Assembly: GCA_044350515.1 (NCBI GenBank)
Contig: JBILHL010000002.1
Span: forward strand, 1 to 64,000
Source: Crocinitomicaceae bacterium
GTDB taxonomy: Bacteria > Bacteroidota > Bacteroidia > Flavobacteriales_D > Crocinitomicaceae
Direction: 5' to 3'
Length of the DNA: 64,000 bases
Shown here: positions 20,713-64,000 of the stretch, piece after piece
Numbering within the stretch: position 1 is the stretch's first letter
Layout: the number at the start of each line of letters is the position of its first letter
Translations under genes and position numbers: made by a program
The notes under the pieces: model-generated
Database searches by the model: none
What the model was told of the DNA's origin: nothing
The model's input: the letters and a program-made list of their open reading frames with translations, nothing else

Positions 20713-21669
20713 CTAATGGATTTGTTGAATAAGTTTCTTAAAGCAAATCGACACATCAACTTCATTAGGGATTGGCCGATAAGCATAGGCGGAAAGTTCT
20801 GTTTGATAAGTGATTTTTAATTGAGCCCAAAGATTATCAAAATCATTTACCAATGGTGAATCAACAATTTGCTTCAACTGCCATCCCGATGGTTCATCGA
20901 ATATTTGACGGTCATGCTCCACTATTTCTTCGAATCGTTTTTTAAAAGATTTGGAGCTAACAAATAAAGCACATTCTGTATTACTCATCAAGTAATAAAG
21001 ATCATAAAAATGTCTGATTTTTTGAGAAACACTATCAATTGGATTTGAATTAAATGAAAATCGAATTAATGAAACTAATTTCTCCAATAAGGTTTGTTCC
21101 ATACTTAATACATTCACCTCAAATGGATTCAAATCGTATTGATGTATATATGTTTCATATCCAGTCTGCACCAAAAAGTCATAAACCATACTTTTTATAG
21201 ATAAACGTTTATAAGGAAATGGATTAGCAAACGAATTGATTTCTACAATCAAGTTATTGCCAGAATTAATCTTATTTATCGATGGATATTCAAAAACAGA
21301 TTTCCTAAATTGTGATCCTTTGCTTGTAATTCCCTTGGTTTTTATTTCATTCAATCCGTGCGTAATTTCTTTTTCAAGGCTTCTAATAATTGTTTTTATT
21401 TTATTTCCAGATGAATTTCCATCATCAATGATTGCTAAATCAACATCCTCAGAAAATCTTTCGATTAAGTTATACCCCTTGGAAAGTGATGTTCCGCCTT
21501 TAAAAACAGAAATGTCGCTGAATTTGCTCCTTGAAAGTTCGCACAATACCTGGGTTATCCAATAGTCTTTTTCAACAAATTCAAGTTTGATGTTTAAATG
21601 TTGTGACGCTGCTCTTATCGTATCTGAAAATAATTTTGGGTCTTGGTGCAGCTTCATACGATGTTCCAT
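20713..21669 (-). CDS. abiEii: AbiEii/AbiGii-family nucleotidyltransferase toxin (DUF1814), type IV TA
   Basis: VFKGGTSLSKGYNLIERFSEDVDLAI matches the GGTaL...RFSEDiDl nucleotidyltransferase motif of AbiEii. Confidence 0.8.
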   Translation of the reverse strand: MEHRMKLHQDPKLFSDTIRAASQHLNIKLEFVEKDYWITQVLCELSRSKFSDISVFKGGTSLSKGYNLIERFSEDVDLAIIDDGNSSGNKIKTIIRSLEKEITHGLNEIKTKGITSKGSQFRKSVFEYPSINKINSGNNLIVEINSFANPFPYKRLSIKSMVYDFLVQTGYETYIHQYDLNPFEVNVLSMEQTLLEKLVSLIRFSFNSNPIDSVSQKIRHFYDLYYLMSNTECALFVSSKSFKKRFEEIVEHDRQIFDEPSGWQLKQIVDSPLVNDFDNLWAQLKITYQTELSAYAYRPIPNEVDVSICFKKLIQQIH

Positions 21670-22376
21670 TTTTCTGCAGTGGACAATACGGAGAAAGCAC
21701 CTGCTAGTTTATATTTTGTAATAGGGTTTAATGTGTTAAATAGCGTTTCTGTTTTCGTTGATTTTATTTCATCTAACATTGCACCTAACAGTGCTCGAGT
21801 GGCAGGAGGATATTTATTTGCCAAACGCATGATTAACAAAAGATCCTTTTCTTTCAATTGTCTCAAAATGGCAATAAATCGAATACAAGAATTTGTTACA
21901 GTTGTATCTGGTATCTTTTTAATATTGCGAATAGCATCCAAAATTTGCAACAATGGAATATTGTCTTTGGTGATATTGTTTTTCTGTTTTATAAAATCAA
22001 TGGTATAGCGATCTCTTTTGAAATTGGGCCGAATCTCATTTTTCCCAATCTGTATGGTGTTACTCACTTGTGTTGTTAATCCCAATTGATTGTAAATGCT
22101 ATAACCTGTAAGGTATCCATTGATTTTCCCTTTCTCTTCCAACAAATCTTTTACAACTTGTTTTTGATTCGGAAGCAAATCTCCAAAGGGTGTAGTTTCT
22201 GGTTTGTAGTATTTACCTTTTGAAAGTTTGGCTATTTTCCCGGATATAACCATTCGATTAAGGGCTTTTATTAGCGCTTGCTTCTGACTCACCTCACTGT
22301 TAAAGTCAACATAGGTGAAAACAAACCCTTTTGGGAATCTATCAATTATATATGCTATGTAATCAGTTGTTTTCAA
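21654..22376 (-). CDS. abiEi: AbiEi-like antitoxin (DUF6088-type transcriptional regulator)
   Basis: 240 aa; N-terminus GFVFTYVDF...ISGKIAKLSKGKYYKP typical of DUF6088 partners of AbiEii; 16-nt overlap with abiEii. Confidence 0.6.
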   Translation of the reverse strand: MKTTDYIAYIIDRFPKGFVFTYVDFNSEVSQKQALIKALNRMVISGKIAKLSKGKYYKPETTPFGDLLPNQKQVVKDLLEEKGKINGYLTGYSIYNQLGLTTQVSNTIQIGKNEIRPNFKRDRYTIDFIKQKNNITKDNIPLLQILDAIRNIKKIPDTTVTNSCIRFIAILRQLKEKDLLLIMRLANKYPPATRALLGAMLDEIKSTKTETLFNTLNPITKYKLAGAFSVLSTAEKWNIV

Positions 22377-22404
22377 TCTATTTTATTAAATACAAATATA
22401 GATA

Positions 22405-22440
22405 AAATGTCCAGTTTTTTACATAATAAACTGGACATTT
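22405..22440. promoter_or_regulatory. perfect 13-bp inverted repeat AAATGTCCAGTTT-N10-AAACTGGACATTT, 29-64 bp upstream of the abiEi start; candidate AbiEi operator
   Basis: Seen directly; AbiEi antitoxins are autorepressors that bind inverted repeats in their own promoter. Confidence 0.4.
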
Positions 22441-22561
22441 ATTTATTTTATAAAACTGAATTGTTCAAACTTTTGGAACAGCTAAAGAACTTAAGTCAGT
22501 AAAGGGAATTAGAAGAATAAAAACAATATTAATCCGCTTGGGGTTCAACCATAAAAAAAGC

Positions 22562-22598: not shown

Positions 22599-22599
22599 G

Positions 22600-22673
22600 T
22601 GACCTTGTTAGGATTCAAACCTAAAACCTCCTGAGCCGTAATCAGGTGCGCTATTCAGTTGCGCCACAAGGCC
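22600..22673 (-). tRNA. tRNA-Arg (anticodon ACG)
   Basis: Hand fold of the reverse complement: acceptor GGCCTTG/CAAGGTC (one G-U), D-stem GCGC, anticodon stem CCTGA/TCAGG with loop TTACGGC, T-arm TTAGG-TTTGAAT-CCTAA; CCA not encoded. Confidence 0.8.
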
Positions 22674-44276: not shown

Positions 44277-46592
44277 TTACGATTCCCAGTGTAAATAAAA
44301 CCGGAGCACAATTGCGACCAAAGCTAAAAGAACTAAAAACGCTTGCCACGATTTATCTGTCGTTATTGCTGGTTCTGGTGCTAAACGCAAATCTTTTACG
44401 TTGGAGGTTAGTTGTAATCCCGCCCAATAGATTGGATGTGCTTGTTCGCCCGTATGCGATTTGAAGTAATTTTGTTTGGCAGTATAAAGTGCATCTTCTA
44501 CAGAAAATCCTGCCTTTAATTTTAGATAAAACTCCTCCATAATTTCTGCCGAACTCTTGTCAATTGTAGCATGGCGAGATGCAATTACAGCCTTGGCTCC
44601 ATTCTTAAATAAATTAATTTGTAAGTAATTATTTGAATAGGTATAAAACTCAAAAAAGCCAGCAAAACAATTATTCACAACAATTAATTCACGTTTACAT
44701 TTGTTTATTTTGACAGAAGACTGGATAAAATCTTTGCCTTGATCATTTAATAATATTAGATTTTTGGCGGTGCCGGTTGGTTTATAAATTGTCATATTCC
44801 CGTGACCAACAACATTTAAAATTCCATGTTTATTGAATATTGAATTAAAATTTTGAACATCATTATAAATTTTTCCTTTCCACTGATGAATTACAGAATG
44901 CATCATTTGATTCATGAAGGGTAATCTTGCCCTTTTTGGCTGATTAATATTTAAAAAATCGATTTTATTTGATATGGTACTTTTTTGGTCAATGAAAAAA
45001 TCAATAGGATTGTAAATGAATACAAAATTGAATCTTTTAGCTAAATAATTTAATTTATCAAACGAATTACCTACGGTATCAGAAATCATAGCAGGGAATT
45101 CTTGTCTAGAATCAATTGAAAGGTAAATTTTATTTATCCCTTTTATGTTTTGTTCGATTGGTTTAAAATAATGATTGTATTTGTTAAATGCCTTTTTTTT
45201 GAAATTAGACAAATTATTTATTGAAAGATCCATCGTTCCGTATTCTTCTGAATCATTAAAAGATGAAACAGTAATCCTATTTTTTGTAATTAAAATATTC
45301 TTTTTTTCTTTAATAAGATTGTAATTCATGAACAACAAAAAAGCTTCATTTTTTTTAAGTTTTTTTTGCACTTCTTTTACAATGTTTTCATTATTAAATT
45401 TACTTTTTGCTAAGTATTTATAAGAGCTAATTACATTATTTGTTAACCGAATTAGATAGAATTTATTCTTTGTTTTTTGATATAAATATTCATCTAAAAT
45501 GGCTAAAGAAATGTATGGTGAAATATTGTAAGAATCATGCGCCACATTTTTCTGACTTTTAATATATTCATCCCAATCAGCTGTTAGCGATGTAATATCT
45601 GAGTAGAATTGTTTGAATTTTTCGGCGGAAACGTTATTTATTATATCGTCACTTATTTTATATTTAATTAATGACAAGACTTGTAGAAAAGGTTGGTTTT
45701 CATTGTCATAATGAGCATTCTTTTTATACAAATAATAACATTCATTAAACACCTCATCGCCTTTTTCTTTTTCCCCATAACAATAGAAAGCTAAGGTTTT
45801 CAGCGAAAGGACGTTCATTTTTAAGTTCAAATCAGATGGATTTATTATTTGAAGTGCTTTATTATAATGGCCAATTAATTCTTTAAACAATTGATGCTGA
45901 TAAGCTGAAAATTTTTTCTGTTGTTCTTTTGTCTTTACGAAATAATTAATCATATCCAGTTTTCTAGTACCCTTACTTCTGAATATCAATGCCTCTTCAC
46001 ATGAAAAGTGTTTATAGCTTTTTAATATTAACAAGGAGGAATCAAAATAATTCATTATTGGAGCGAGGTGTACCTTTCTTGTTTTATCATAAACTAAGCC
46101 ACTTGTTAAACCTCTTCTATATAGAAAGGTTGTTCCATAAACCTGATAAATAAAATGAAACGGAACTTTAAATCTTTCATTCCAGTTTTTTCTCAGTAAT
46201 CTCATCGATTCATCAGAGAATTTAGTTGCTTTATCACCAACCATATTAAAATGCCAAAAAGCAGCTTTTTCAGCCAAGTAATAAGCTTTATAAATATCTC
46301 CTTTGTCTTTATTGAGCTGATATGCCGCTTCAGAAGCTCGTAAAAAACCATATAAATCTTCACTAAAATATAAAGCCTTAGATTTTAGAACTAGAATGGT
46401 GTATTTATCTGTACTCTTAAGAGTTTCTTTTAATAACCTATTGGCTAATATATTAGCTTGGCGGTGATTTCCTTTTTCTATTAATGATTCAATCCTGGAA
46501 ATTTGTTGTTGTACACGCTCTTTTCCTTTATTCCTCTGGAAAGAGAACAGAAAAAAAATTGAAAAAATAAGAAGCCAAAAATTGCGAAACAT
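44277..46592 (-). CDS. TPR-repeat plus CHAT (caspase-like) domain protein with C-terminal TM helix
   Basis: C-terminal LNVVGHGN (His) and LIVVNNCFAG (Cys) form a caspase/CHAT HC dyad; the N-terminal half is helical TPR-like; ATG at 46592 used (ORF extends to 46664 with GTG). Confidence 0.55.
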   Translation of the reverse strand: MFRNFWLLIFSIFFLFSFQRNKGKERVQQQISRIESLIEKGNHRQANILANRLLKETLKSTDKYTILVLKSKALYFSEDLYGFLRASEAAYQLNKDKGDIYKAYYLAEKAAFWHFNMVGDKATKFSDESMRLLRKNWNERFKVPFHFIYQVYGTTFLYRRGLTSGLVYDKTRKVHLAPIMNYFDSSLLILKSYKHFSCEEALIFRSKGTRKLDMINYFVKTKEQQKKFSAYQHQLFKELIGHYNKALQIINPSDLNLKMNVLSLKTLAFYCYGEKEKGDEVFNECYYLYKKNAHYDNENQPFLQVLSLIKYKISDDIINNVSAEKFKQFYSDITSLTADWDEYIKSQKNVAHDSYNISPYISLAILDEYLYQKTKNKFYLIRLTNNVISSYKYLAKSKFNNENIVKEVQKKLKKNEAFLLFMNYNLIKEKKNILITKNRITVSSFNDSEEYGTMDLSINNLSNFKKKAFNKYNHYFKPIEQNIKGINKIYLSIDSRQEFPAMISDTVGNSFDKLNYLAKRFNFVFIYNPIDFFIDQKSTISNKIDFLNINQPKRARLPFMNQMMHSVIHQWKGKIYNDVQNFNSIFNKHGILNVVGHGNMTIYKPTGTAKNLILLNDQGKDFIQSSVKINKCKRELIVVNNCFAGFFEFYTYSNNYLQINLFKNGAKAVIASRHATIDKSSAEIMEEFYLKLKAGFSVEDALYTAKQNYFKSHTGEQAHPIYWAGLQLTSNVKDLRLAPEPAITTDKSWQAFLVLLALVAIVLRFYLHWES

Positions 46593-46691
46593 TAAGGACA
46601 AAAGAAAGGAATTATACTGAAATATTTTTGCAGTTATGTAACTTGAAACAAAAAATAATCCCACTAACTGAAGCTGATGGTATTTAAAGTA

Positions 46692-46755
46692 AAGTTTCGC
46701 AGGATAAAAGTTCCGCAGTATTTCAAATCCTGCGGAACTTTGCCTGCGGAACTTT
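46692..46755. repeat. palindromic array of the 16-bp unit AAGTTCCGCAGGATTT (two direct plus two inverted copies), 3' of the ATPase gene
   Basis: aaagtttcgcaggat aaaagttccgcagtattt c aaatcctgcggaactt tgcctgcggaacttt; a T-rich tract follows. Confidence 0.75.
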
Positions 46756-46833
46756 AATTTAAATAGAATTTTTCAAACCTGAATCCTTTTTTTTGTCTGT
46801 CAATTTAATAGGTAAAAAACATTTACCCATTTT

Positions 46834-48144
46834 CTATTTAACCCGGCGAATCATTTCTATGGTGTAATCTGCTAGAAAAAGAGGAATATTCAACAAGCCA
46901 TCTCTGTATTGTAAATTTTTCAATGAATACCGTATTCTTAATGAAGGATTAAACTTTTCATTGTATAACGAGAGACTTCTACTTTTAACATTTTCATCGC
47001 TCTTCACTTCGATTGGAATAATTTCATTTTCAATTTGAATTAAAAAGTCAACTTCAGCAGTATTTCCAGATGTCCAATATCTAGGAGGAGTTTTTAATTG
47101 AGCAACCAAACTTTGTAGGATGTAATTTTCTATCAACGCACCTTTAAACTCAGAAAAAAGGCGATTTCCTTCTAAAAATACGCTTGGTGAAAGCTTAGCT
47201 AGGTTTCTTATAATTCCAACGTCTAAAGCATATAATTTAAATGCACTTTGATCGTCATAAGCGCTTAGTGGTAATGATGGCTTTGTATTTAATTTCACTT
47301 GATATACTATTCCTGCATTTATCAACCATTGAATTGCATCTTCATATTCTCTTGCTCTTGCTCCCGTTCGAATTAATTGATAAATGAATTTTTTGTTTTC
47401 TCTCGCAAGTTGGGCTGGCAACGAGTTAAACACTTCGCCAATTTTAGCAACGTTTGTCATAATTGGATGTTTCGCAAAATCACCTTTGTACGAAAGAATT
47501 AGATTATTTAATGTTTCGTCTGTATTTTCAAATGTATTCGAGTCGTTAAATGATTTAACAATTGCTGGCATTCCTCCTGTAATCATGTATTTTTTGAAAT
47601 GATGTAATAAATCATTAAAAAAATAGTCAGGAATGAGATCTAGTGCATCTAATTGCTCTACATACTTCGATAAAGAATTACTCCAATTAGGTAATACTTC
47701 TCGAAATGTCATTGGATAAAGTGTTAAAAATTCAACTTTCCCAACGGGAAAAGAATTGCCTGAATTTAACAAAATACCCAAAAGTGAGCCAGCGCATATA
47801 ATTGGAATTTCAGGTTTTTGTTCTGCAAAATATTTTAAGGTATTCAAAGCCTCAGGGCATTCTTGAATTTCATCTAAAATGATCAATGTTTCGCTATTTA
47901 TTTCTTTACCACTGATAAGCGAAAACGACTCAAGGATTCGATGTGTATCTTTATTTTTTTGAAAAAAATCTTTTAACTCTGGACGTTCGTCAAAGTTGAA
48001 GTAAATAAATTGAGAAAAGGCATGTTCTCCAAACCAACGCATAAGATAGGTTTTACCAACTTGTCTCGCTCCTTGCAGAATTAATGGTAACCTCTCGGTT
48101 TTGTTTTTCCATTTAATTAATTGAAGTTGTAGGTTTCTTTCCAT
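46834..48144 (-). CDS. AAA-family ATPase of the AAA_14/DUF4143 type
   Basis: Walker A ILQGARQVGKTYL, Walker B LIILDEIQE, C-terminal DUF4143-like region. Confidence 0.7.
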   Translation of the reverse strand: MERNLQLQLIKWKNKTERLPLILQGARQVGKTYLMRWFGEHAFSQFIYFNFDERPELKDFFQKNKDTHRILESFSLISGKEINSETLIILDEIQECPEALNTLKYFAEQKPEIPIICAGSLLGILLNSGNSFPVGKVEFLTLYPMTFREVLPNWSNSLSKYVEQLDALDLIPDYFFNDLLHHFKKYMITGGMPAIVKSFNDSNTFENTDETLNNLILSYKGDFAKHPIMTNVAKIGEVFNSLPAQLARENKKFIYQLIRTGARAREYEDAIQWLINAGIVYQVKLNTKPSLPLSAYDDQSAFKLYALDVGIIRNLAKLSPSVFLEGNRLFSEFKGALIENYILQSLVAQLKTPPRYWTSGNTAEVDFLIQIENEIIPIEVKSDENVKSRSLSLYNEKFNPSLRIRYSLKNLQYRDGLLNIPLFLADYTIEMIRRVK

Positions 48145-48206
48145 TTATAAGTGGGTAAAATGTGATTATTTACACAAATATAACATTTATTTTGTGATTT
48201 TAGGAA

Positions 48207-48239
48207 AAGTTCCGCAGGATTTAAAATCCTGCGGAACTT
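48207..48239. repeat. perfect 33-bp palindrome AAGTTCCGCAGGATTTAAAATCCTGCGGAACTT flanked by AAAA/TTTT (bidirectional-terminator-like), 63 bp upstream of the ATPase start
   Basis: Seen directly; same 16-bp unit as the other arrays. Confidence 0.75.
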
Positions 48240-48276
48240 TTCCCGCAGCACAATTTCATTAACTGTTACCATATTA

Positions 48277-48376
48277 CCTTGTGCACGAATTAAATGAATA
48301 AATTCAAACCATTGAAATGGTTATTGGATTATCACGAAATATCCCTTAGGTGAGGGGTTAAATCTTCACCTAAGGG
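48277..48376 (-). ncRNA. copy A of a two-hairpin structured element: conserved box CCTTGTGC.C.AATTAAATGAA, hp1 AAACCATTGAAATGGTT (48306-48322), hp2 CCCTTAGGTGA-loop-TCACCTAAGGG (48343-48376); candidate sRNA, leader or MITE-like repeat
   Basis: Three copies in the window share order and spacing, but the stems differ by compensatory changes (see findings). Confidence 0.45.
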
Positions 48377-48452
48377 ATAACCCCCAAGACAACAAATCTC
48401 AAATTATTTTGAATAACGATAATCCTTAATTTTGTGATATAAACCCGATAAT

Positions 48453-49499
48453 ATGAAATCTGTCAGTGCAATCATTTTGTTTTTTATGCTTTTCGTTTCT
48501 GGATTTGCAAGCTCGCAAGTAAGTCAAACGGATACAAACACCTATGTAATCAAAAAAAGCAATGGCACTGAATATATTGGTAAAATTATAAGTGATGATG
48601 GAAGAGAAGTATTAATAGCAACGAAGGAATTAGGAAACATCTATATACCGAAAGCTGATATTATTTCAATTAAAGTCGTAGATATTGAGAAAGAAATGGT
48701 GAATAATGAATATCGTGGTAAAGGTGTATTTACAACACGTTATCAATTTTCAACGAATGCATTTCCAATAGAAAAAGATGAAAACTATGCATTGATTAAT
48801 TTATATGGACCGGAAGTTCATTTTGCTATAAATAAGCGAATATCAATTGGATTAATGGCAACATGGATAGCAAGCCCTTTAGTTTTAGCCGTAAAATACA
48901 CCATTCCTACTTCCAATGAAAAGATCAATTTTGGATTTGGAACGCTGTTAGGAACAACTGGATATTTAAATCAAGCGAAAGGATTTGGAGGGCTACATTG
49001 GGGTATGGTTACCTTTGGAGACCGAGCTAAAAACGTAACTTTATCACTCGGATATTCTTACTTCAAACCTGGACTATCAAGATACGACACATTTTATCAA
49101 CCGGGTACTTATGTTAATGAATCCTATTATAGTAATATAATTGAAAAAGTGAATTCACCATTAGTATTAGCTCCTGTTTTAGGTATAGCGAGTATAGCTC
49201 CCGTTGGAAAAAAAGCGAGTTTTATCCTTGATGCAATGTTCATTTTAGGTAAAACAAGTGGTGAGAAAGAGCAAGATATTACCAACTATTATAACGATCA
49301 AAATCAAATAACTTACAGTGTTGTTTCGGAATTAAGAAGTGTAACGTACCCTCGAATAAATTTTGTATTTATGCCTGGGATGCGTTTCCAAAAATCTGAA
49401 ACGAAGGCCTTTCAAGTTTCTCTAGCCGGGATTATTGGCTATGCGGATGATTTATACTCATTTCCTGTGCCAATGTGTAGCTGGTTCTATAAGTTCTAA
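48453..49499 (+). CDS. putative outer-membrane beta-barrel protein (secreted, unknown family)
   Basis: Signal peptide, alternating amphipathic strands, C-terminal aromatic WFYKF ending in Phe. Confidence 0.4.
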   Translation: MKSVSAIILFFMLFVSGFASSQVSQTDTNTYVIKKSNGTEYIGKIISDDGREVLIATKELGNIYIPKADIISIKVVDIEKEMVNNEYRGKGVFTTRYQFSTNAFPIEKDENYALINLYGPEVHFAINKRISIGLMATWIASPLVLAVKYTIPTSNEKINFGFGTLLGTTGYLNQAKGFGGLHWGMVTFGDRAKNVTLSLGYSYFKPGLSRYDTFYQPGTYVNESYYSNIIEKVNSPLVLAPVLGIASIAPVGKKASFILDAMFILGKTSGEKEQDITNYYNDQNQITYSVVSELRSVTYPRINFVFMPGMRFQKSETKAFQVSLAGIIGYADDLYSFPVPMCSWFYKF

Positions 49500-49520
49500 T
49501 ACCAATTAACAAGAACAAAA

Positions 49521-49550
49521 AAATCCCACCAACCAAAGATGATGGGATTT
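49521..49550. terminator. hairpin AAATCCCA-loop-TGGGATTT just 3' of the beta-barrel gene
   Basis: 8-bp perfect stem; A7 upstream (T7 on the opposite strand). Confidence 0.4.
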
Positions 49551-49557
49551 GTGAAAA

Positions 49558-49625
49558 AAGTTCCGCAGGATTAAAGTTCCGCAGGATTTGAAATCCTGCG
49601 GAACTTTCAAATCCTGCGGAACTTT
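49558..49625. repeat. palindromic array: two direct plus two inverted AAGTTCCGCAGGATT units; 33-bp perfect core at 49574-49606
   Basis: aagttccgcaggatt aaagttccgcaggattt g aaatcctgcggaacttt caaatcctgcggaacttt. Confidence 0.75.
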
Positions 49626-49644
49626 ACTAACCGAAATAATATTT

Positions 49645-49745
49645 CCTTGTGCGCTAATTAAATGAACGAACCTCAAACCATTGAAATGGTTATTGAATTT
49701 TTGGTATTTCTCTTTAGGTTCGGATTTAAATCCGAACCTAAAGAG
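49645..49745 (-). ncRNA. copy B of the two-hairpin element: box, hp1 AAACCATTGAAATGGTT (49675-49691), hp2 CTCTTTAGGTTCGGA-tttaaa-TCCGAACCTAAAGAG (49710-49745, 15-bp perfect stem); a degenerate partial copy follows at about 49770-49850
   Basis: Seen directly; ORF 49506..49760 (84 aa) lies inside it and is rejected as coding. Confidence 0.45.
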
Positions 49746-49997
49746 AAACCACAATAACAAAAAATGGTTTTAACCATTTATCCATTAAATAATCGAAATT
49801 GAAATGGGGGTTTGATTTGGGGGTTTAGGTTTTTGAAATAAACTGAAATTTCTCAAAAAACAATTTTTTTAAAAAATCCCGCCAATATAAACTGACGGGA
49901 CTTAATCAAAATTACTTAAAACAATAAAAAATTTAAATATTAATAAAATAAATTTGAAAACACGTAATAAATAATAGTTTAAATATGGAGTAACAAG

Positions 49998-50573
49998 TTA
50001 ATTATTAGCAAAATAGTAGGCAATTTTTTGCCAAACAGTAGGTTTTATTTTCCTGTTTTTTTCCTCATAGTATGAACAGTCGACACCTTGTTGTTTTAAT
50101 TTATTTATTCCTAATTCTAATTTGTCAGATATTGCTTTTCTCTCTTTTGGGGAGGAAATATTAGAGCCTTGTACTATCAACTGTTCAATAATATTTGTAA
50201 TTTCTTCTTTACTAGTACCAAACTGTATTGAAGCAATATCCTTTATTTTAGAATCTTGTCTTTCTTTCATTAAATATTCTTGCTCCTCTCGCAAACGGTC
50301 GGCTTCAGCTTGTTTAATGTCAGCAGCAGCCATTTTTTCCATAAAACCTGGTCCAGAATTATTATTATTAGATTTTGAAGTGTAATTATCTTCTGATGAA
50401 TTATTGGATTTTTCTGAATTCTGTGAATTAAACTCATTAAGGCATTTATTACTACAAAATAGCTTAGCTCCAAAACCGAATGATTTATTATAAACCCATC
50501 CTTTAGGTGTAGGATCGTAATTCCCACTTTTATAACCTTCTTTTCCACAATGATAACATGAATAGTCACTCAT
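49998..50573 (-). CDS. hypothetical Cys-rich (CxxC...C...C) protein with Asn/Ser-rich linker and coiled-coil C-terminus
   Basis: CYHCGKEG...CSNKC zinc-ribbon-like N-terminus; weak terminator hairpin downstream at about 49870-49905. Confidence 0.4.
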   Translation of the reverse strand: MSDYSCYHCGKEGYKSGNYDPTPKGWVYNKSFGFGAKLFCSNKCLNEFNSQNSEKSNNSSEDNYTSKSNNNNSGPGFMEKMAAADIKQAEADRLREEQEYLMKERQDSKIKDIASIQFGTSKEEITNIIEQLIVQGSNISSPKERKAISDKLELGINKLKQQGVDCSYYEEKNRKIKPTVWQKIAYYFANN

Positions 50574-50702
50574 AATATATAAATTTAATTTCCCCCTACT
50601 CTTCAGCTTTTCAGGTTTCGCTCTTACTGAAAATCAGCAGTAAGTCTGTTTTGGTTTTGCAATTTTAAATCAAACAACTGCAACCAATTTGCAGTCTTAA
50701 AA

Positions 50703-51185
50703 TTATTTTGCTTGCCATTTTAAGTTCAAATTTCCAGCTTGTTTGAATTGGTAGCTGTTGCTGTTTTTGTCAAAAATTAAAGGGCACTGAAATTCGTTTT
50801 TGAGCACGTTTAAATAGTTAAACAAACTGCGTTCAGAAATTTCAAGCTGCGCTGCAAACTGAGCTGCAGAACCAGTATTACTTTGTTTTACTCCTAAATA
50901 AATGCGTTGCAAGGTTGCCAGTTGTTTATTATTAAAAACAGTATCTGTTTGTACAATCGTTTGGGCTTCTTCGTATTTCCAATTCAACGCACCATTTTCA
51001 GAAAACAGGTAGCTTTGCTTGAAATTATTCCATACAATGGGAGCGTTCAACTCCTCGCGAATAAACTTGGTGTAATTGTAAATCATTCGCTCCGAAACAC
51101 CTAATATCTTTGCAACATCAGCAGGTTTTCCCGTTTGTTTGCGCTCTACTAAATGAATAAATTTTCTCAATTTCTCTAAATGCAT
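50703..51185 (-). CDS. tandem winged-HTH DNA-binding protein (two HTH_11/DeoR-N-like repeats)
   Basis: Repeat 1 PADVAKILGVSERMIYNYTKFIREEL; repeat 2 AAQFAAQLEISERSLFNYLNVLKNEF. Confidence 0.5.
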   Translation of the reverse strand: MHLEKLRKFIHLVERKQTGKPADVAKILGVSERMIYNYTKFIREELNAPIVWNNFKQSYLFSENGALNWKYEEAQTIVQTDTVFNNKQLATLQRIYLGVKQSNTGSAAQFAAQLEISERSLFNYLNVLKNEFQCPLIFDKNSNSYQFKQAGNLNLKWQAK

Positions 51186-51505
51186 ATACCACTAAGTAGA
51201 ATGAGAAAAGAATTTGTCCCGATTACGCTACACTTTTTGCAAGCAATCGTTTTACAACTGCTTTCAACCAAAAGAAATAGATTCATTTCATTAGTGACAA
51301 TTCTACTTTCTCGCGCATCTGGCTCGCAAGATTCCACCTCAGATAGATTTTTCCATCATCGGTGCAAAGAAAAATCAAGGGAGTGCAATCAGTTTGCAGT
51401 TTGAAATTTTATTCTTTTCTAAATTATTATACTTACTAGTATGTGCCCAAATTTTAGACGTAAGGTGTTAGATGTCAATTTTATACGTTTTTGATAATTT
51501 ATAGA

Positions 51506-51597
51506 AAGTTCCTTAGGATTTCAAGTTTCGCAGGGTAAGTTCCGCAGGATTTGAAATCCTGCGGAACTTACCCTGCGAAACTTACCCTACGGAACTT
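51506..51597. repeat. nested palindromic array (3 direct plus 3 inverted units); 61-bp perfect palindrome 51523-51583 centred on G51553; directly 3' of the lptD stop
   Basis: aagtttcgcagggt aagttccgcaggattt g aaatcctgcggaactt accctgcgaaactt verified base by base; outer arms are imperfect. Confidence 0.8.
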
Positions 51598-51600
51598 TTC

Positions 51601-54138
51601 TTACAAAAACGCTGGCGGCTTACGGATTTCAATCTTCGCATCTTTAAATACGGACGAAGTATTGCGAATGCTAAACAAGAAACTTTTATTTCCTCCAATT
51701 GGCGTCCAGAAGAACGAAAGCGCCCAACAATGCATGTTGCGATTCAATGAGAAATAAAGGTTGGTCACCTCAAATTCTTGTAAATTCAAGTTTAAATTCC
51801 CAGAAATATTCCAACGTTTTGTAAAACTCATATCACCATTCAAAACCAATGTTTGCACTTGATTGTAGATTTTTGGGGAAGTAGTTGTTATATTTTGATT
51901 GGCATTAATGGTGTAAACGTGCGACAATGACATTTTCCAAGGAATATCAAAATAGATGGCGCGCTCAGGATACAACGCAAAATAGTTGAAGTCGCTATTC
52001 CAATTCGTATTCAAACGTTCACCTGTTTCCTGAATTTTTTTCCGGTCTTTTGGTGGTGCAATAGTCAATGCGGTAGTTAAACCCGTTGTTGTGAATCGTC
52101 CAAGTCCTTGATCATTCAATAAGGCATAAGCACCAATAGTTTTTCCATTCGTTTCGTTCCAGCCATAAGGACTAAAAGTAGCATTGGAAACAAAGTTTAA
52201 CCAATCAACTGGACTAATTCTCAAAGCTAGTGTGATGTTGGATAAATTCATAGAATCTTTCATAAAATCGTAATTCCCATTGATGGAAAATTGGTCGATT
52301 AAGCGTGTTTTTTTGAAGTCAGTCACGGTGTCTTTATCTGATTTATATTTTAATTCAAACGTGTTATTGATACCAAAATTCAAAAATGCCGCTTGACTCG
52401 AATTACCAACGTTGTAAATACTGCGCTCAAAAGGTGAATAAGTTACAAGCGATTGATTCACGCCCACATTTTCTGAAATTAAAGGATTCAACAAGGGAAC
52501 ATAACGAAAACCAACACTTGGAGTCATGAGGTGGCGCATTTTTGCTTTTTTCTTACCAATAAATTGATAATATGTATAAAGCATCGTTGTCAAACTCACA
52601 TTCATATTGAATTCGTGACCCATTCCATATTTTTTGATAGTATCAGTTATTGTTTTATTAGTTACAATGTCATACGATTTATCCACTTGCTGAAAGTTAA
52701 TTTTGTTACCATAATTAATGGAAGGATTGATTTTGATGGTGTTACCAATTAAGCCAAATGTTGTTTGTAGTGCCGCAGATTGCGAAATTCCATTTAAGAA
52801 TTGATCGGATATTCGTTGAAAATCACCTTGAGACAAAAGAGTATCGCTAAAATTAGAACGATTTTGACCCTCCAAATTATACGTCAAACCAATGCGAGCT
52901 ATCGTTTTTTTCCATTCTTTGTTCGGTACTTTGAAGAGATTTTTGAATGGGAAAACACGTGTTAAATTGGCATTAAAAATTGGACTAACTAAAGAAATAT
53001 TTTTTGCAAGCGAATTCTGGCGTATTGATAATTTCATTCCCATTGTCAACGGTTTTCCAGGAAATAAACGATTGATATTGATGTCAGAATTAAAGGAATT
53101 ATTAAAAAAATCAGGATTTATTGGGTCGAGGTTGTTTTTGGTGGTATTATCAGAAATGAAATTTACGTTGGAAGAAAAATTCCAATAAGGATTTGACTTT
53201 GGTTCTTTGCGATGCGACCAATTTACAATTATTTTATTTTGACTAGAACTATCAGGGAATCCTGCTCGAAACTGCTGAAAACCAACAGATAGTCTTCCTG
53301 AAAAACCATAACGTTTTGAATAATCTAAATCGTTTCGCAAACCCCAACTTCCTCTGCTGTAAAGATTGGCATAAAGTGAAGTTTGCAAATTATCATTGAT
53401 TGGAATATAGTAACCTAAATTCTGGAATCCAAATCCATACTGAGAAAGCGGGACAAATTCAGGGAACAACAAACCAGAAGTCCGTTCTTTTTGATTCGTT
53501 GGTAATAGTGCAAAAGGCAAACCAAATGGTGTTGGAATTCCTTTTACCCATAAATTCATTGGTCCTGTAACAACGCGTTCATTCGGCACAACCACGCCTT
53601 TCGACAATTGGAAATGATAATGTGGTTCCTCCAAATCGCAGGTCGTTAAACGTCCTTGTCGCAAATGAATTTCGTCGTTCGGATGTCGTTTGGCAATTCC
53701 CATGTGGAAATAAAACTCATCTTGCTTAATGGAAAGTTCTTCCAAAAATCCTTTTTTGGTCTCGGTGTTATAGCGCAATTTATGTGCGGTCACCACCTCT
53801 GAACCATCTGTAAATGTTGGAAATTCGACCTTGTTGCTATCTTTATCATACGCATAACTTGCTGAAATTTCATTGGTATTCATATCCACCAAAATATATC
53901 CTGCAGTCATGTTTACTTCGTCCATTTGGATTTTTGCGTCTCCATAAAGATGCACTTGTTTCTTTTTCAAATCGTTGTAAATAGAATCTCGAGCACTGTA
54001 GCGAATGATGCTTTCCAACGAATTATCGTTCATCACAAGCGTATCTTTCGGTACAACTTGCGCTGTAACAAAACCTTGAATGTACATTATTAACAATGTA
54101 ACGAAGAAAAGTTGTTGTATGTTGATATTCTTGGTCAA
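51601..54138 (-). CDS. lptD: LPS-assembly protein LptD/OstA-like outer-membrane protein
   Basis: 845 aa; signal peptide; OstA-like N-domain (VHLYGDAKIQMDEVNMTAGYILVD) and a large beta-barrel. Confidence 0.65.
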   Translation of the reverse strand: MTKNINIQQLFFVTLLIMYIQGFVTAQVVPKDTLVMNDNSLESIIRYSARDSIYNDLKKKQVHLYGDAKIQMDEVNMTAGYILVDMNTNEISASYAYDKDSNKVEFPTFTDGSEVVTAHKLRYNTETKKGFLEELSIKQDEFYFHMGIAKRHPNDEIHLRQGRLTTCDLEEPHYHFQLSKGVVVPNERVVTGPMNLWVKGIPTPFGLPFALLPTNQKERTSGLLFPEFVPLSQYGFGFQNLGYYIPINDNLQTSLYANLYSRGSWGLRNDLDYSKRYGFSGRLSVGFQQFRAGFPDSSSQNKIIVNWSHRKEPKSNPYWNFSSNVNFISDNTTKNNLDPINPDFFNNSFNSDININRLFPGKPLTMGMKLSIRQNSLAKNISLVSPIFNANLTRVFPFKNLFKVPNKEWKKTIARIGLTYNLEGQNRSNFSDTLLSQGDFQRISDQFLNGISQSAALQTTFGLIGNTIKINPSINYGNKINFQQVDKSYDIVTNKTITDTIKKYGMGHEFNMNVSLTTMLYTYYQFIGKKKAKMRHLMTPSVGFRYVPLLNPLISENVGVNQSLVTYSPFERSIYNVGNSSQAAFLNFGINNTFELKYKSDKDTVTDFKKTRLIDQFSINGNYDFMKDSMNLSNITLALRISPVDWLNFVSNATFSPYGWNETNGKTIGAYALLNDQGLGRFTTTGLTTALTIAPPKDRKKIQETGERLNTNWNSDFNYFALYPERAIYFDIPWKMSLSHVYTINANQNITTTSPKIYNQVQTLVLNGDMSFTKRWNISGNLNLNLQEFEVTNLYFSLNRNMHCWALSFFWTPIGGNKSFLFSIRNTSSVFKDAKIEIRKPPAFL

Positions 54139-62507: not shown

Positions 62508-63677
62508 TTAATAACTCATCCCAAAATGCCAAAGTGGAATGGTATTCATGTAACCATATTCGATGTCGTCTTTCACAATGAAAGCATTTTTTAAGTCAAA
62601 GATTTGCTTTTTGGTTTTACTTTTTCCTCCCACCTCAAAAATAGCGTCCTCAATTTGAAAATCCGCCGAAATGTGTGAAGTAACTTTGTGTTCCAAACTC
62701 ATTTGATTGAGAAAAAAGGTTTCTCTTACATTTCCAAGATCTGTTGCGGTCGAACCTATTGCATACATCAAATTTGGATTGTCCAAATATATTTTATTTG
62801 TTTTACCCAGCATTCTTAAGCTTTCCGTTTTATCTCTCAACTGCATACTGATTCCAGCCTTTTCAAAATAATATAGAAAATCAACAATCTGATTTCTATG
62901 CACATCAACCAACTCTGCAATCTTTGTGAAATTGGGTTTGAAAGGAACACTTTTCGCAATAATTGAAAGTAAAAGTTTTAGCTTATAAGCTGTTGACACG
63001 TTCATTTTTGCATAAATTGGAATATCTGTTTCAATGGTCATATTCAAAATGTTATTCAATTTTTGAGTATAATCTGGCTCATTAAAAAAGGGATAATAAC
63101 CTTGTTTTAAATAGTTTTTAAAATGCATTAAAGGAAATTCTATACCTTTAAATTCTACTTTATTTTGCAGGATTTCTTCCAAGGAATAGCTCTTCAAACT
63201 CAGTCCTTGCGAAAGATTTAGGTATTCTCTAAATGATAAGCCTTGCAAGTGATACGTTATCACTCTTCTGCTCAAATCATCCGTTCCTTTGTATAAATCT
63301 AAAATGGATGAACCTGTAAAAACAATCTTTAACTTTGGTAAATTGTCGTACATCATTTTGATTTCCTTTGACCAATTTGGGTACTTATGAATTTCGTCAA
63401 TGAATAGATTTTCACCACCATTCAACTGAAACTGATAAGCTAAATCATACAATGTATTTGTCGAGAAATAAAAGTCATCGGCACTTACGTATAATGCTTT
63501 TGTGATTTCATAGTTAAGTTTTATTTGCTGCAATAATAGCGTAGTTTTACCAACTCCTCTTGCGCCAAGAATAGCAACAATTCGATTTTCCCAATTTATT
63601 TTCGGATGCAAATACCTTAAAAGTGTCGTGTCAGTTCTAGCTAACAAAGCTCTATATTGTGCAATTATTCTTTCCAT
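62508..63677 (-). CDS. AAA-family ATPase of the AAA_14/DUF4143 type (second copy)
   Basis: Walker A ILGARGVGKTTLL, Walker B LFIDEIHK; paralog of 46834..48144. Confidence 0.7.
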   Translation of the reverse strand: MERIIAQYRALLARTDTTLLRYLHPKINWENRIVAILGARGVGKTTLLLQQIKLNYEITKALYVSADDFYFSTNTLYDLAYQFQLNGGENLFIDEIHKYPNWSKEIKMMYDNLPKLKIVFTGSSILDLYKGTDDLSRRVITYHLQGLSFREYLNLSQGLSLKSYSLEEILQNKVEFKGIEFPLMHFKNYLKQGYYPFFNEPDYTQKLNNILNMTIETDIPIYAKMNVSTAYKLKLLLSIIAKSVPFKPNFTKIAELVDVHRNQIVDFLYYFEKAGISMQLRDKTESLRMLGKTNKIYLDNPNLMYAIGSTATDLGNVRETFFLNQMSLEHKVTSHISADFQIEDAIFEVGGKSKTKKQIFDLKNAFIVKDDIEYGYMNTIPLWHFGMSY

Positions 63678-63832
63678 TTTATGTTATTTGAAACAAAAAT
63701 AGCTATTTTCGCTGAATTTATTTAGCGATTAATTAATTTATTGATAATTTAATTTAGCTATTATTAATTTTTATGCTGAATCATAGTAGCGAAATTAGCG
63801 TATTTGGAATTTGAATTGTTGTGTTAAATGGG

Positions 63833-63898
63833 AAACGATTGAAATCGTTATTACTTTTGTTGCTCTCTCATAGGTTTGGGTTTAAATCCGAACCTATG
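63833..63898 (-). ncRNA. copy C of the two-hairpin element: hp1 AAACGATTGAAATCGTT (63833-63849), hp2 CATAGGTTTGGG-tttaaa-TCCGAACCTATG (63869-63898), 156 bp upstream of the second DUF4143 ATPase gene
   Basis: Seen directly; same orientation and spacing as copy A relative to its ATPase gene. Confidence 0.45.
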
Positions 63899-64000
63899 AA
63901 GAATTATATTCACCAACCACTTTAATGGTTTACAATTTTATTTTTTGTTAACGTAAAAAAATAAGAGAAAAAAAAAGGCATAAAATTTTCACTAAATTCG

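Follow-up and report, generated by a model that had tools for sequence, protein, structure and literature searches.

Why should the boundaries within a run of defense-like genes be occupied by long palindromic arrays of one short unit? The question is raised by a Crocinitomicaceae bacterium contig (JBILHL010000002.1 of GenBank assembly GCA_044350515.1), of which positions 1 to 64,000 of the forward strand were analyzed and are referred to here as the window. A first-pass annotation had reported four such arrays in this A+T-rich DNA of Bacteroidota type; the repeat is designated S, and its sites S1 to S4. Along the minus strand the order is lptD, S4, HTH160 (the gene for a tandem winged-helix protein), a 191-aa gene, M (a second repeat, module M), S3, a 348-aa gene on the opposite strand, M, S2, an ATPase gene, S1, a CHAT-domain gene and Fic, followed by genes for a TPR protein and an extracytoplasmic function (ECF) sigma factor, both on the opposite strand. 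On balance, and with moderate confidence only, S is read here as a lineage-specific, terminator-like hairpin repeat that doubles as a recombination and slippage substrate of a hypervariable defense-gene array.

One unit builds four palindromic sites

The unit AAAGTTCCGCAGGATTT is the building block of all four sites in the window (Table 1). The sequence AAGTTCCGCAGGATTT, with up to three mismatches allowed, matched the window 15 times where 0.98 matches were expected, a count reached by none of 100 shuffles, and 12 of the 15 matches lay inside S1 to S4. The 10-mer core GTTYCGCAGG was matched 16 times (3.2 expected), all but one of them within the sites. These match counts confirm that the four sites previously annotated share a single unit. 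All four fall within 4.9 kb, and there are none in the remaining 59 kb of the window.

The perfect 61-bp palindrome reported at 51523-51583, the inner part of S4, was recovered exactly: its 30-nt arms (51523-51552 and 51554-51583) are 100% complementary and separated by 1 nt. S2 is a perfect 41-bp palindrome (48203-48243), and the two 22-nt arms of S3 (49572-49593 and 49605-49626) are also 100% complementary. The sites had been described as two or three direct copies followed by the same number of inverted ones, which is correct for S3 but idealized elsewhere, since S2 has one unit of each kind plus a decayed third, the 2+2 arrangement of S1 is imperfect, and the outermost pair of S4 has decayed. 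Folding of the sites as single strands is predicted to release 32 to 73 kcal/mol (-32 to -73 kcal/mol), which is 9 to 16 standard deviations below shuffled sequences (z-scores of -9 to -16). The palindromes are capable of forming hairpins or cruciforms, in line with the earlier suggestion of cruciform-prone sites. The A4 and T4 flanks that had been taken as the mark of a bidirectional terminator at the shortest site are present at S2.

A unit is 13-17 nt long and is not itself a palindrome. The stem that the units form is G+C-rich, with the core CCGCAGG, and the center is A+T-rich. The core can be parsed as two inverted arms of 13 bp with a 7-bp A+T spacer between them (AAGTTCCGCAGGA-TTTGAAA-TCCTGCGGAACTT), a geometry that is constant in all sites. 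ARAGORN called a tRNA-Leu(taa) at 48193-48274, which is the S2 hairpin with its flank; there was no Rfam tRNA match, so S2 was rejected as a tRNA and the call regarded as a false positive that could mislead annotation.

The sites follow one rule and are restricted to one clade

Comparison with related loci (identified by L numbers) yielded 21 complete sites and one cut by a contig end. Each consists of one to five direct units, one constant center and one to four inverted units, and the order was (+)n(-)m in all 22; inverted units followed by direct ones were never seen. The unit periods are irregular (14, 16, 18, 19, 21, 23, 24 and 28 bp), and asymmetric sites such as +++++- and ++---- exist. 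Perfect palindromic arms of at least 17 nt flank 15 of 19 centers.

Placement at gene boundaries, described earlier for the window, holds there (Table 1) and across the clade: of 19 sites, 16 have the 3' end of a gene beside them. Several lie 0-4 nt from a stop codon or overlap it (lptD, a MORN-repeat gene, AbiEii and a cyclase gene). The stem is followed by T3 to T6, so that S has the anatomy of an intrinsic terminator, namely a G+C stem-loop and then a T-run 3' of a gene. S2, between divergent genes, is the clear exception to the 3'-end placement. Unlinked loci, those following lptD, the cyclase gene and the MORN gene, share identical 35-mers, and no target-site duplication was visible flanking any of the sites read.

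A scan for the perfect S core in one genome per species (185,579 species) returned four 8-kb stretches in three metagenome-assembled genomes (MAGs). One of these MAGs is labeled Crocinitomicaceae; the other two are from freshwater and are labeled Chitinophaga pinensis, a label at odds with the similarity of both to the Crocinitomicaceae MAG. A metagenome scan with a relaxed center gave 91 stretches, of which only L009, L050, L052 and L054 (perhaps also L069) were relatives, the rest being unrelated G+C-rich hairpins. Perfect copies were found in only a few freshwater Crocinitomicaceae assemblies, concentrated in a hypervariable gene array whose content across the clade comprises the HTH160 gene, the ATPase, a nuclease, AbiE, Fic and CHAT. 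No sites occurred in about 70 kb of same-clade contigs around lptD, including contigs from MAGs that have sites elsewhere, nor in the same-clade housekeeping DNA of L105, L108, L111 and L119; in all, some 130 kb of the clade's housekeeping DNA was free of S. One site lies outside the variable array: in L004/L009 it touches the stop codon of the MORN-repeat gene and separates it from an aldose epimerase gene. In the same clade, contigs L105, L106 and L107 end about 200-550 bp past a KTSC gene and L096 ends inside S3; independent assemblies that break at or near these variable loci are consistent with repeats or strain heterogeneity there.

The genes punctuated by S include defense candidates, as the first-pass annotation had supposed. 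PADLOC assigned the ATPase of the window to PDC-S01 and the Fic gene to PDC-S04/SoFic, and in relatives it identified a YhcG nuclease (PDC-S02) and an AbiEii pair (AbiE).

It had also been proposed that the arrays are iteron-like binding sites for the adjacent tandem helix-turn-helix protein, in which case HTH160 (50703-51185) would occupy the direct units as monomers and the inverted pair as dimers. The two tandem winged-helix domains of HTH160, its confinement to the same clade as S, the constant position of its gene at the head of the array and the presence of S upstream of it in the window, L117 and L115 are in keeping with this. The spacing of the units (14-28 bp), however, is irregular and not helically phased; no site lies near HTH160 in L119, L113 retains only a remnant, and there is none upstream of the gene in L002 or L054; the conserved 250 nt upstream of HTH160 contain no unit; and the site in L004/L009 lies between housekeeping genes, far from any such gene. 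On the sequences compared, an operator or iteron role is most improbable.

Cassette breakpoints coincide with the sites

The S-ATPase-S block is 92-93% identical at the nucleotide level in the window, L001 and L003; its neighbors are not the same, and similarity stops at a site or within one (window positions 46693, 46729 and 48240). In L003 the order is TA-S-ATPase-S-CHAT, where TA is a toxin-antitoxin pair. In L001 it is M-S-ATPase-S-M'-TA-S-CHAT, with a single hybrid site joining TA to CHAT, and comparison of the two places the ends of the block within S. The window, L002 and L117 share a block comprising the 348-aa gene, M and S, which L001 lacks at the equivalent place. L113 keeps the overall order of the window from lptD to the ECF sigma factor gene, minus the block M-S2-ATPase-S1.

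At the other end, the array led by HTH160 adjoins lptD in the window, L113, L117 and L119, a cyclase gene in L115 and a peptidase S51 gene in L002. This junction is marked by S in the window, L117 and L115 and by a remnant in L113; there is no site in L119 or L002. In total, at least 12 of about 16 homology breakpoints lay in S or no more than 10 nt from it, and S makes up less than 4% of the array. The cross-strain comparison proposed in the first-pass annotation therefore shows that the arrays do bound variable cassettes. A clean empty site was sought for S3 and S4 and rejected: L113 and L119 lack these sites, but the spacer differs too, and no precise insertion boundary could be drawn.

Two distant ATPase cassettes bear on whether the sites travel with the gene. 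Neither L097 (74% nucleotide identity) nor L099 has S, and the homology of L097 extends to the S boundary, which implies that the sites belong to the lineage rather than to the gene. S was accordingly rejected as the terminal repeats of a mobile ATPase unit.

The same comparison weighs on the plainest alternative, that S is a strong bidirectional terminator that arrives with horizontally acquired genes, the coincidence with breakpoints being a by-product of cassette boundaries. The A-tract, G+C-rich stem and T-tract, the placement 3' of genes and the position between convergent or tandem genes are those of ordinary bidirectional intrinsic terminators, and breakpoints between cassettes would be expected in intergenic DNA anyway. 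But the L097 cassette shows that S did not come with the gene; one sequence is reused beside many unrelated genes; the stems reach 45 bp and are made of repeated units; one site lies between divergent genes; the breakpoints fall within S itself and not merely in the 150-500-bp spacers; a hybrid site is seen at a natural junction (S_e of L001); and canonical terminators already stand beside S1 and S3. That S is a terminator and nothing else is quite improbable. As an observation apart, the two canonical terminators (AAATCCCNCC...GGNGGGATTTTTTT), at 46650-46686 and 49521-49550, have outer ends AAATCC...GGATTT and a G+C middle in common with the S unit in the opposite pairing, and AAAGTTGGCGGGATTTTTTT at about 15020-15050 of L113 resembles the unit AAAGTTCCGCAGGATTT; the S unit may derive from an arm of an ordinary neighboring terminator.

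A second alternative is that a dedicated site-specific recombinase, with its gene located elsewhere, acts on S, in an integron-like or dRS3/NIME-like gene-capture array in which the extra direct 13-mers would be accessory binding sites. Cassettes are present, absent or relocated exactly at S, the breakpoints are concentrated there, S is confined to the variable array and the geometry of the center is the same in every site. In addition, S4 and S_b of L003 have direct units at a 14-bp period (13+1), like the extra repeat of FRT, and the structure of the right arm moves with the type of ATPase cassette (L003, L098). The only hybrid junction that could be mapped (S_e of L001, 5723/5727), however, lies in the direct-unit arm rather than at the center, a position that fits homologous or slipped recombination. 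The unit spacing is irregular (14-28 bp), the G/C center base is not consistently oriented along an array, and a palindrome perfect but for one base has almost no polarity. The 13-7-13 parse is itself a weak criterion for a tyrosine-recombinase core, because any perfect palindrome satisfies arms of 11-13 bp and a spacer of 6-8 bp. Furthermore, no integrase, transposase or other recombinase gene (including Phage_integrase and RAYT) was found among the 47 of 53 open reading frames scanned in the 64 kb of the window or in related loci totaling about 170 kb. A dedicated recombinase is thus considered unlikely. The fuller proposal is that S and M together are the site of recombination in an integron-like array that lacks an integrase and captures single-gene anti-phage systems, with a recombinase acting in trans, an FRT-like core and accessory direct repeats. 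It is likewise doubtful; if true, it would amount to a functional counterpart of integrons or of the Neisseria dRS3/NIME arrays in a phylum in which integrons are almost absent.

Units are gained and lost while the arms stay matched

Closely related sites differ by whole units. In L004 and L009, flanks that are 100% identical over about 180 nt enclose sites that differ by one 23-bp unit, and at S3 the window and L002 differ by one 18-bp unit. In L113 only the outer unit of S4 and a small palindrome remain, and it looks, from the sequence, as though the center had been removed. The arms of a site are homogenized: L098 carries the variant GTTGCGCAGG in all three units, in both orientations and arms, and the variants of the middle pair of S4 are symmetric on both arms. 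S3 of the window and of L117 differ only at two unpaired bases, G in one and C in the other, and the single arm mismatch in S4 of L117 is a G·T on the lptD sense strand. Template switching is reported to make the arms of inverted repeats uniform, to extend them and to invert their spacers (PMC8794818, PMC8604942, PMC13100816). Changes in unit number together with matched arms are the pattern expected from direct-repeat slippage and intrastrand template switching.

The nesting can also be viewed as the work of a non-autonomous element of the miniature inverted-repeat transposable element (MITE) or REPIN kind, moved in trans and inserting preferentially in the center of existing copies, which would give ++-- and +++---. 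Such movement would account for the identical 35-mers at unlinked places, one of them between two housekeeping genes (L004/L009), and for sites that overlap or abut stop codons. The inner units of S4 and S1 are perfect and the outer ones decayed, as successive nested insertions predict, and in S3 and in S_a of L003 the odd base of an 'old' center is left on one arm. Against this, no site has a visible target-site duplication, no transposase or RAYT gene was seen in the open reading frames and related loci scanned, REP tags are absent, and the copies are few and clustered. A defined element would give one period length, whereas the observed periods span 14-28 bp, and sites such as +++++- and ++---- are strongly asymmetric. 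Nested insertion of a fixed-length element was rejected as the sole source of multi-unit sites on account of these periods and of the many asymmetric sites, and mobility of the MITE kind is regarded as improbable.

Comparison with known repeat systems

The unit was not a widespread simple terminator, and it matched none of the described families that were searched. The closest analog is the dRS3/NIME (neisserial intergenic mosaic element) arrays of Neisseria. These combine short inverted repeats with a second repeat family of 50-150 bp in strain-variable intergenic mosaics beside variable genes, with clustered recombination end points (PMC1797815). The dRS3 unit is 20 bp long with a 6-bp terminal inverted repeat and is present in hundreds of copies per genome; whether homologous recombination or a specific recombinase is responsible for the mosaics is debated, and the arrays are said to be unknown outside Neisseria (PMC1797815). 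S resembles them in pairing an inverted repeat with a second family (M), in a repeat number that varies between strains and in the clustering of breakpoints. The sequences, however, are unrelated; the S unit is 13-17 nt long, non-palindromic and arranged as direct arrays within inverted arms, in few copies. S is found in Bacteroidota between whole defense-gene cassettes, whereas dRS3/NIME stand beside surface-antigen genes, and no integrating phage or recombinase is known for S.

The first-pass annotation had raised repetitive extragenic palindromic (REP)-like elements, a likeness that holds for behavior but not for membership. Like REP, BIME and REPIN elements (PMC3733652), S forms extragenic hairpins, mostly 3' of genes, that vary between strains; head-to-head pairs fold as one long hairpin, and the roles proposed are the same (termination, mRNA stability and recombination). 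A REP carries a GTAG or CGTC tag at one end of an imperfect palindrome of 20-40 bp (PMC3733652). Neither the S unit AAAGTTCCGCAGGATTT, which is not a palindrome, nor the 35-bp core has such a tag; GTAG occurs only within CCGTAGG, a variant seen in two outer units that have decayed. The stems of S are 17-45 bp long as against 5-13 bp, and its copies are few, local and clustered, as against tens to thousands of dispersed ones. REP/BIME membership was therefore rejected. No RAYT gene (IS200/IS605-like Y1) was found in the scan, which covered 47 of 53 window open reading frames and the related loci.

Integron attC sites and CALIN arrays (PMC9024848) share with S the separation of single-gene cassettes, defense genes included, by palindromic sites, and the presence, absence or relocation of a cassette together with one site. 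Integrons are rare in Bacteroidetes (PMC9024848). In S, however, the motif order is the reverse, 5'-GTTCC...GGAAC-3' as opposed to RYYYAAC...GTTRRRY, and GTTCCGC is not GTTRRRY. S is a perfect palindrome with a 1-nt center, with neither extrahelical bases nor an unpaired central region, and its sequence is conserved, not its structure alone. Its cassettes do not all point the same way (the 348-aa gene runs against its neighbors) and have promoter-like motifs of their own, such as the TAnnTTTG-type motif (TATATTTG) about 35 nt upstream of the start of the ATPase cassette, and there is no IntI. The reversed motif order, the perfect palindromes and the lack of a Phage_integrase match in the window led to the rejection of attC/CALIN.

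The native 48-bp FRT site carries a third, extra direct repeat of its arm. The minimal FRT layout is 13-8-13 (PMC3051101). S has in common with FRT and loxP (PMC3051101) 13-bp inverted arms around a short A+T-rich spacer, in some S sites the arm is repeated once more in direct orientation at a distance of 1 bp ('++-'), and the S arm begins AAGTTCC as the FRT arm does (GAAGTTCCTATTC). The S spacer, however, is 7 bp long and symmetric except for one base, its direct units are irregular in number and spacing, and no cognate recombinase was found. The resemblance to FRT and loxP is architectural only.

Further candidates were rejected. S is not a CRISPR, as the units abut and there are no spacers, and it is not a DNA uptake sequence, as 59 kb of the window and the relatives' housekeeping loci are free of it. 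A known RNA family was excluded with Rfam: at the gathering score only a tRNA elsewhere in the window was found, and a permissive search of 46400-51800 returned only sub-threshold, generic microRNA-like hairpins. Nothing in viral contigs, phage records or plasmid records matched the unit, and a phage or plasmid origin was accordingly rejected.

A terminator-like repeat as a proposed substrate for rearrangement

The reading that best accommodates these observations remains that of a terminator-like hairpin repeat that is also a substrate for recombination and slippage. S would act as a two-way transcription stop, an insulator or a 3' stabilizer between independently expressed accessory genes. 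Because its copies are identical, repeated and prone to structure, they would also serve as substrates for rearrangement of the gene array. Slippage between direct units would add or remove units, and strand switching templated by the hairpin would keep the arms identical, flip the center base and lengthen the palindrome, as structure-induced errors of replication. Recombination between S copies at different places would delete, insert or relocate cassettes (PDC-S01, PDC-S02, AbiE and others), probably by RecA-type or replication-based exchange rather than by a dedicated recombinase.

Several observations weigh against this reading. The canonical hairpin and T-run terminators directly beside S1 and S3 mean that S is not obviously needed there as a terminator, and S2, between divergent genes, has no gene 3' end on which to act. 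Ordinary terminators have far shorter stems than the 30-45 bp seen here. The identical 35-mers at unlinked loci need a means of spread, which recombination alone would provide only if arrays once sat there. Finally, copy number and linkage to a recombinase or transposase were judged only from the window and the related loci.

Features of the locus, module M and neighboring genes

Table 1. Coordinates of the repeats, terminators and genes of the array in the window.
Feature	Coordinates	Strand	Description
S1	46692-46755	none	2+2 units, with imperfections in the outer pair and at one inner base; upstream of the CHAT gene, 79 nt past the 3' end of the ATPase gene
S2	48203-48243	none	1+1 units, A4/T4 flanks, decayed extra inverted unit at 48244-48254; divergent intergenic region, 62 nt 5' of the ATPase start
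S3	49557-49626	none	2+2 units, T6 after it on the minus strand; between convergent genes, 58 nt 3' of the 348-aa gene
S4	51506-51597	none	3+3 units, middle pair with symmetric variants, outermost pair decayed; begins 3-4 nt past the lptD stop codon
Module M, copy 1	48259-48414	+	structured, about 160 nt, abuts S2; order M, S, ATPase in the array frame
Module M, copy 2	49627-49782	+	abuts S3; holds a perfect 42-bp palindrome (49707-49748)
Module M, copy 3	63781-63934	+	no S
Hairpin + T-run terminator	46650-46686	-	canonical; directly after S1; AAATACCATC...GTGGGATTATTTTTT on the minus strand; kept after the equivalent site in L001 and L003
Hairpin + T-run terminator	49521-49550	-	canonical; directly after S3
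CHAT-domain gene	44277-46664	-	far side of S1; L003 counterpart 33% identical
AAA_14 + DUF4143 ATPase	46834-48144	-	cassette gene; PADLOC PDC-S01; S1 and S2 on either side
348-aa gene	48453-49499	+	cassette gene with no assigned function; part of the block [gene + M + S]
191-aa gene	49998-50573	-	variable, no family; replaced in relatives by a 114-aa gene and a type IX secretion system (T9SS) protein gene, a 177-aa gene or a 253-aa gene
HTH160	50703-51185	-	tandem winged-helix protein, 160 aa; clade-restricted; always the first array gene; about 250 nt conserved upstream
lptD	51601-54087	-	core gene at the boundary; synteny with array-less relatives ends at its stop codon

Module M is non-coding and conserved and contains three hairpins, the central one an 18-bp hairpin of the form TAGG NNNGG xTTTAAAx CCNNN CCTA. 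Its pairing is kept by compensatory changes, 15 of the 34 predicted pairs covarying in nine copies, and there was no Rfam match. A coding role was rejected because the 31-codon open reading frame of one copy is frame-shifted in others. Besides the three copies in the window, M occurs in L001, L002, L050, L052, L054, L098, L115 and L117 and is confined to the same clade as S. It usually adjoins S, always in the same relative orientation, and lies upstream of AAA_14 ATPase or YhcG nuclease genes. The third window copy is upstream of a second AAA_14 ATPase gene (62508-63677, minus strand; 389 aa, similar to PADLOC PDC-S01), where there is no S; L054 has a similar arrangement, M'-ATPase389-M-S-YhcG.

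Homologues of the array ATPase, with its AAA_14 and DUF4143 domains, number in the thousands in Flavobacteriia, Saprospiraceae and Bacteroidales, and their amino-acid identity to it is about 70%. Such uniform identity in distant hosts suggests, on sequence comparison, frequent horizontal transfer of this single-gene defense candidate. On the far side of S1, Fic, the next gene past CHAT, is 92% identical between the window and L003, and CHAT only 33%. The start of lptD was placed at the ATG at 54087, as a version with a TTG start found no relatives.

The predicted structure of HTH160 is a generic tandem winged helix of two domains (predicted local distance difference test score, pLDDT, 80), with weak Foldseek matches to the N-termini of Mga/AcpB and to ScpB. 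The approximately 250 nt upstream of the gene (51186-51440, minus strand) are about 90% conserved in five genomic contexts (the window, L002, L115, L117 and L119), as well conserved as the gene itself, and may be a long leader, a promoter/operator region or a small RNA.

Elsewhere in the window, a second AbiEii/DUF6088 toxin-antitoxin pair (20713-22253, minus strand) lies beside a tRNA-Arg gene (22599-22673) and has an ordinary palindromic terminator (22395-22449) and no S; defense and toxin-antitoxin genes thus occur in the window without the repeat. An A+T-rich palindromic repeat at 2250-2328 (AATGTAGAATGTAAAATGTAGAAT..., with 32-nt arms that are 88% complementary) separates an aldehyde dehydrogenase gene (794-2245) from a truncated copy of it (2340-2873).

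Implications

The turnover of single-gene systems in defense islands is still to be explained, and most phyla have no integron for the purpose. S marks the exact joints at which closely related freshwater strains exchange defense candidates (PDC-S01, PDC-S02 and AbiE) and other accessory genes. On the plainest reading, too, the repeats would be of use, as putative strong insulators between toxic genes, as markers of variable loci and as an explanation for the breaks in assemblies of this clade. If the repeats themselves cause the exchange, whether through structure-induced breakage, homologous recombination or a dedicated enzyme, they would give Bacteroidota a simple and portable means of varying the genome in modules, and would also be a natural example of template switching by which palindromes grow and repair themselves.

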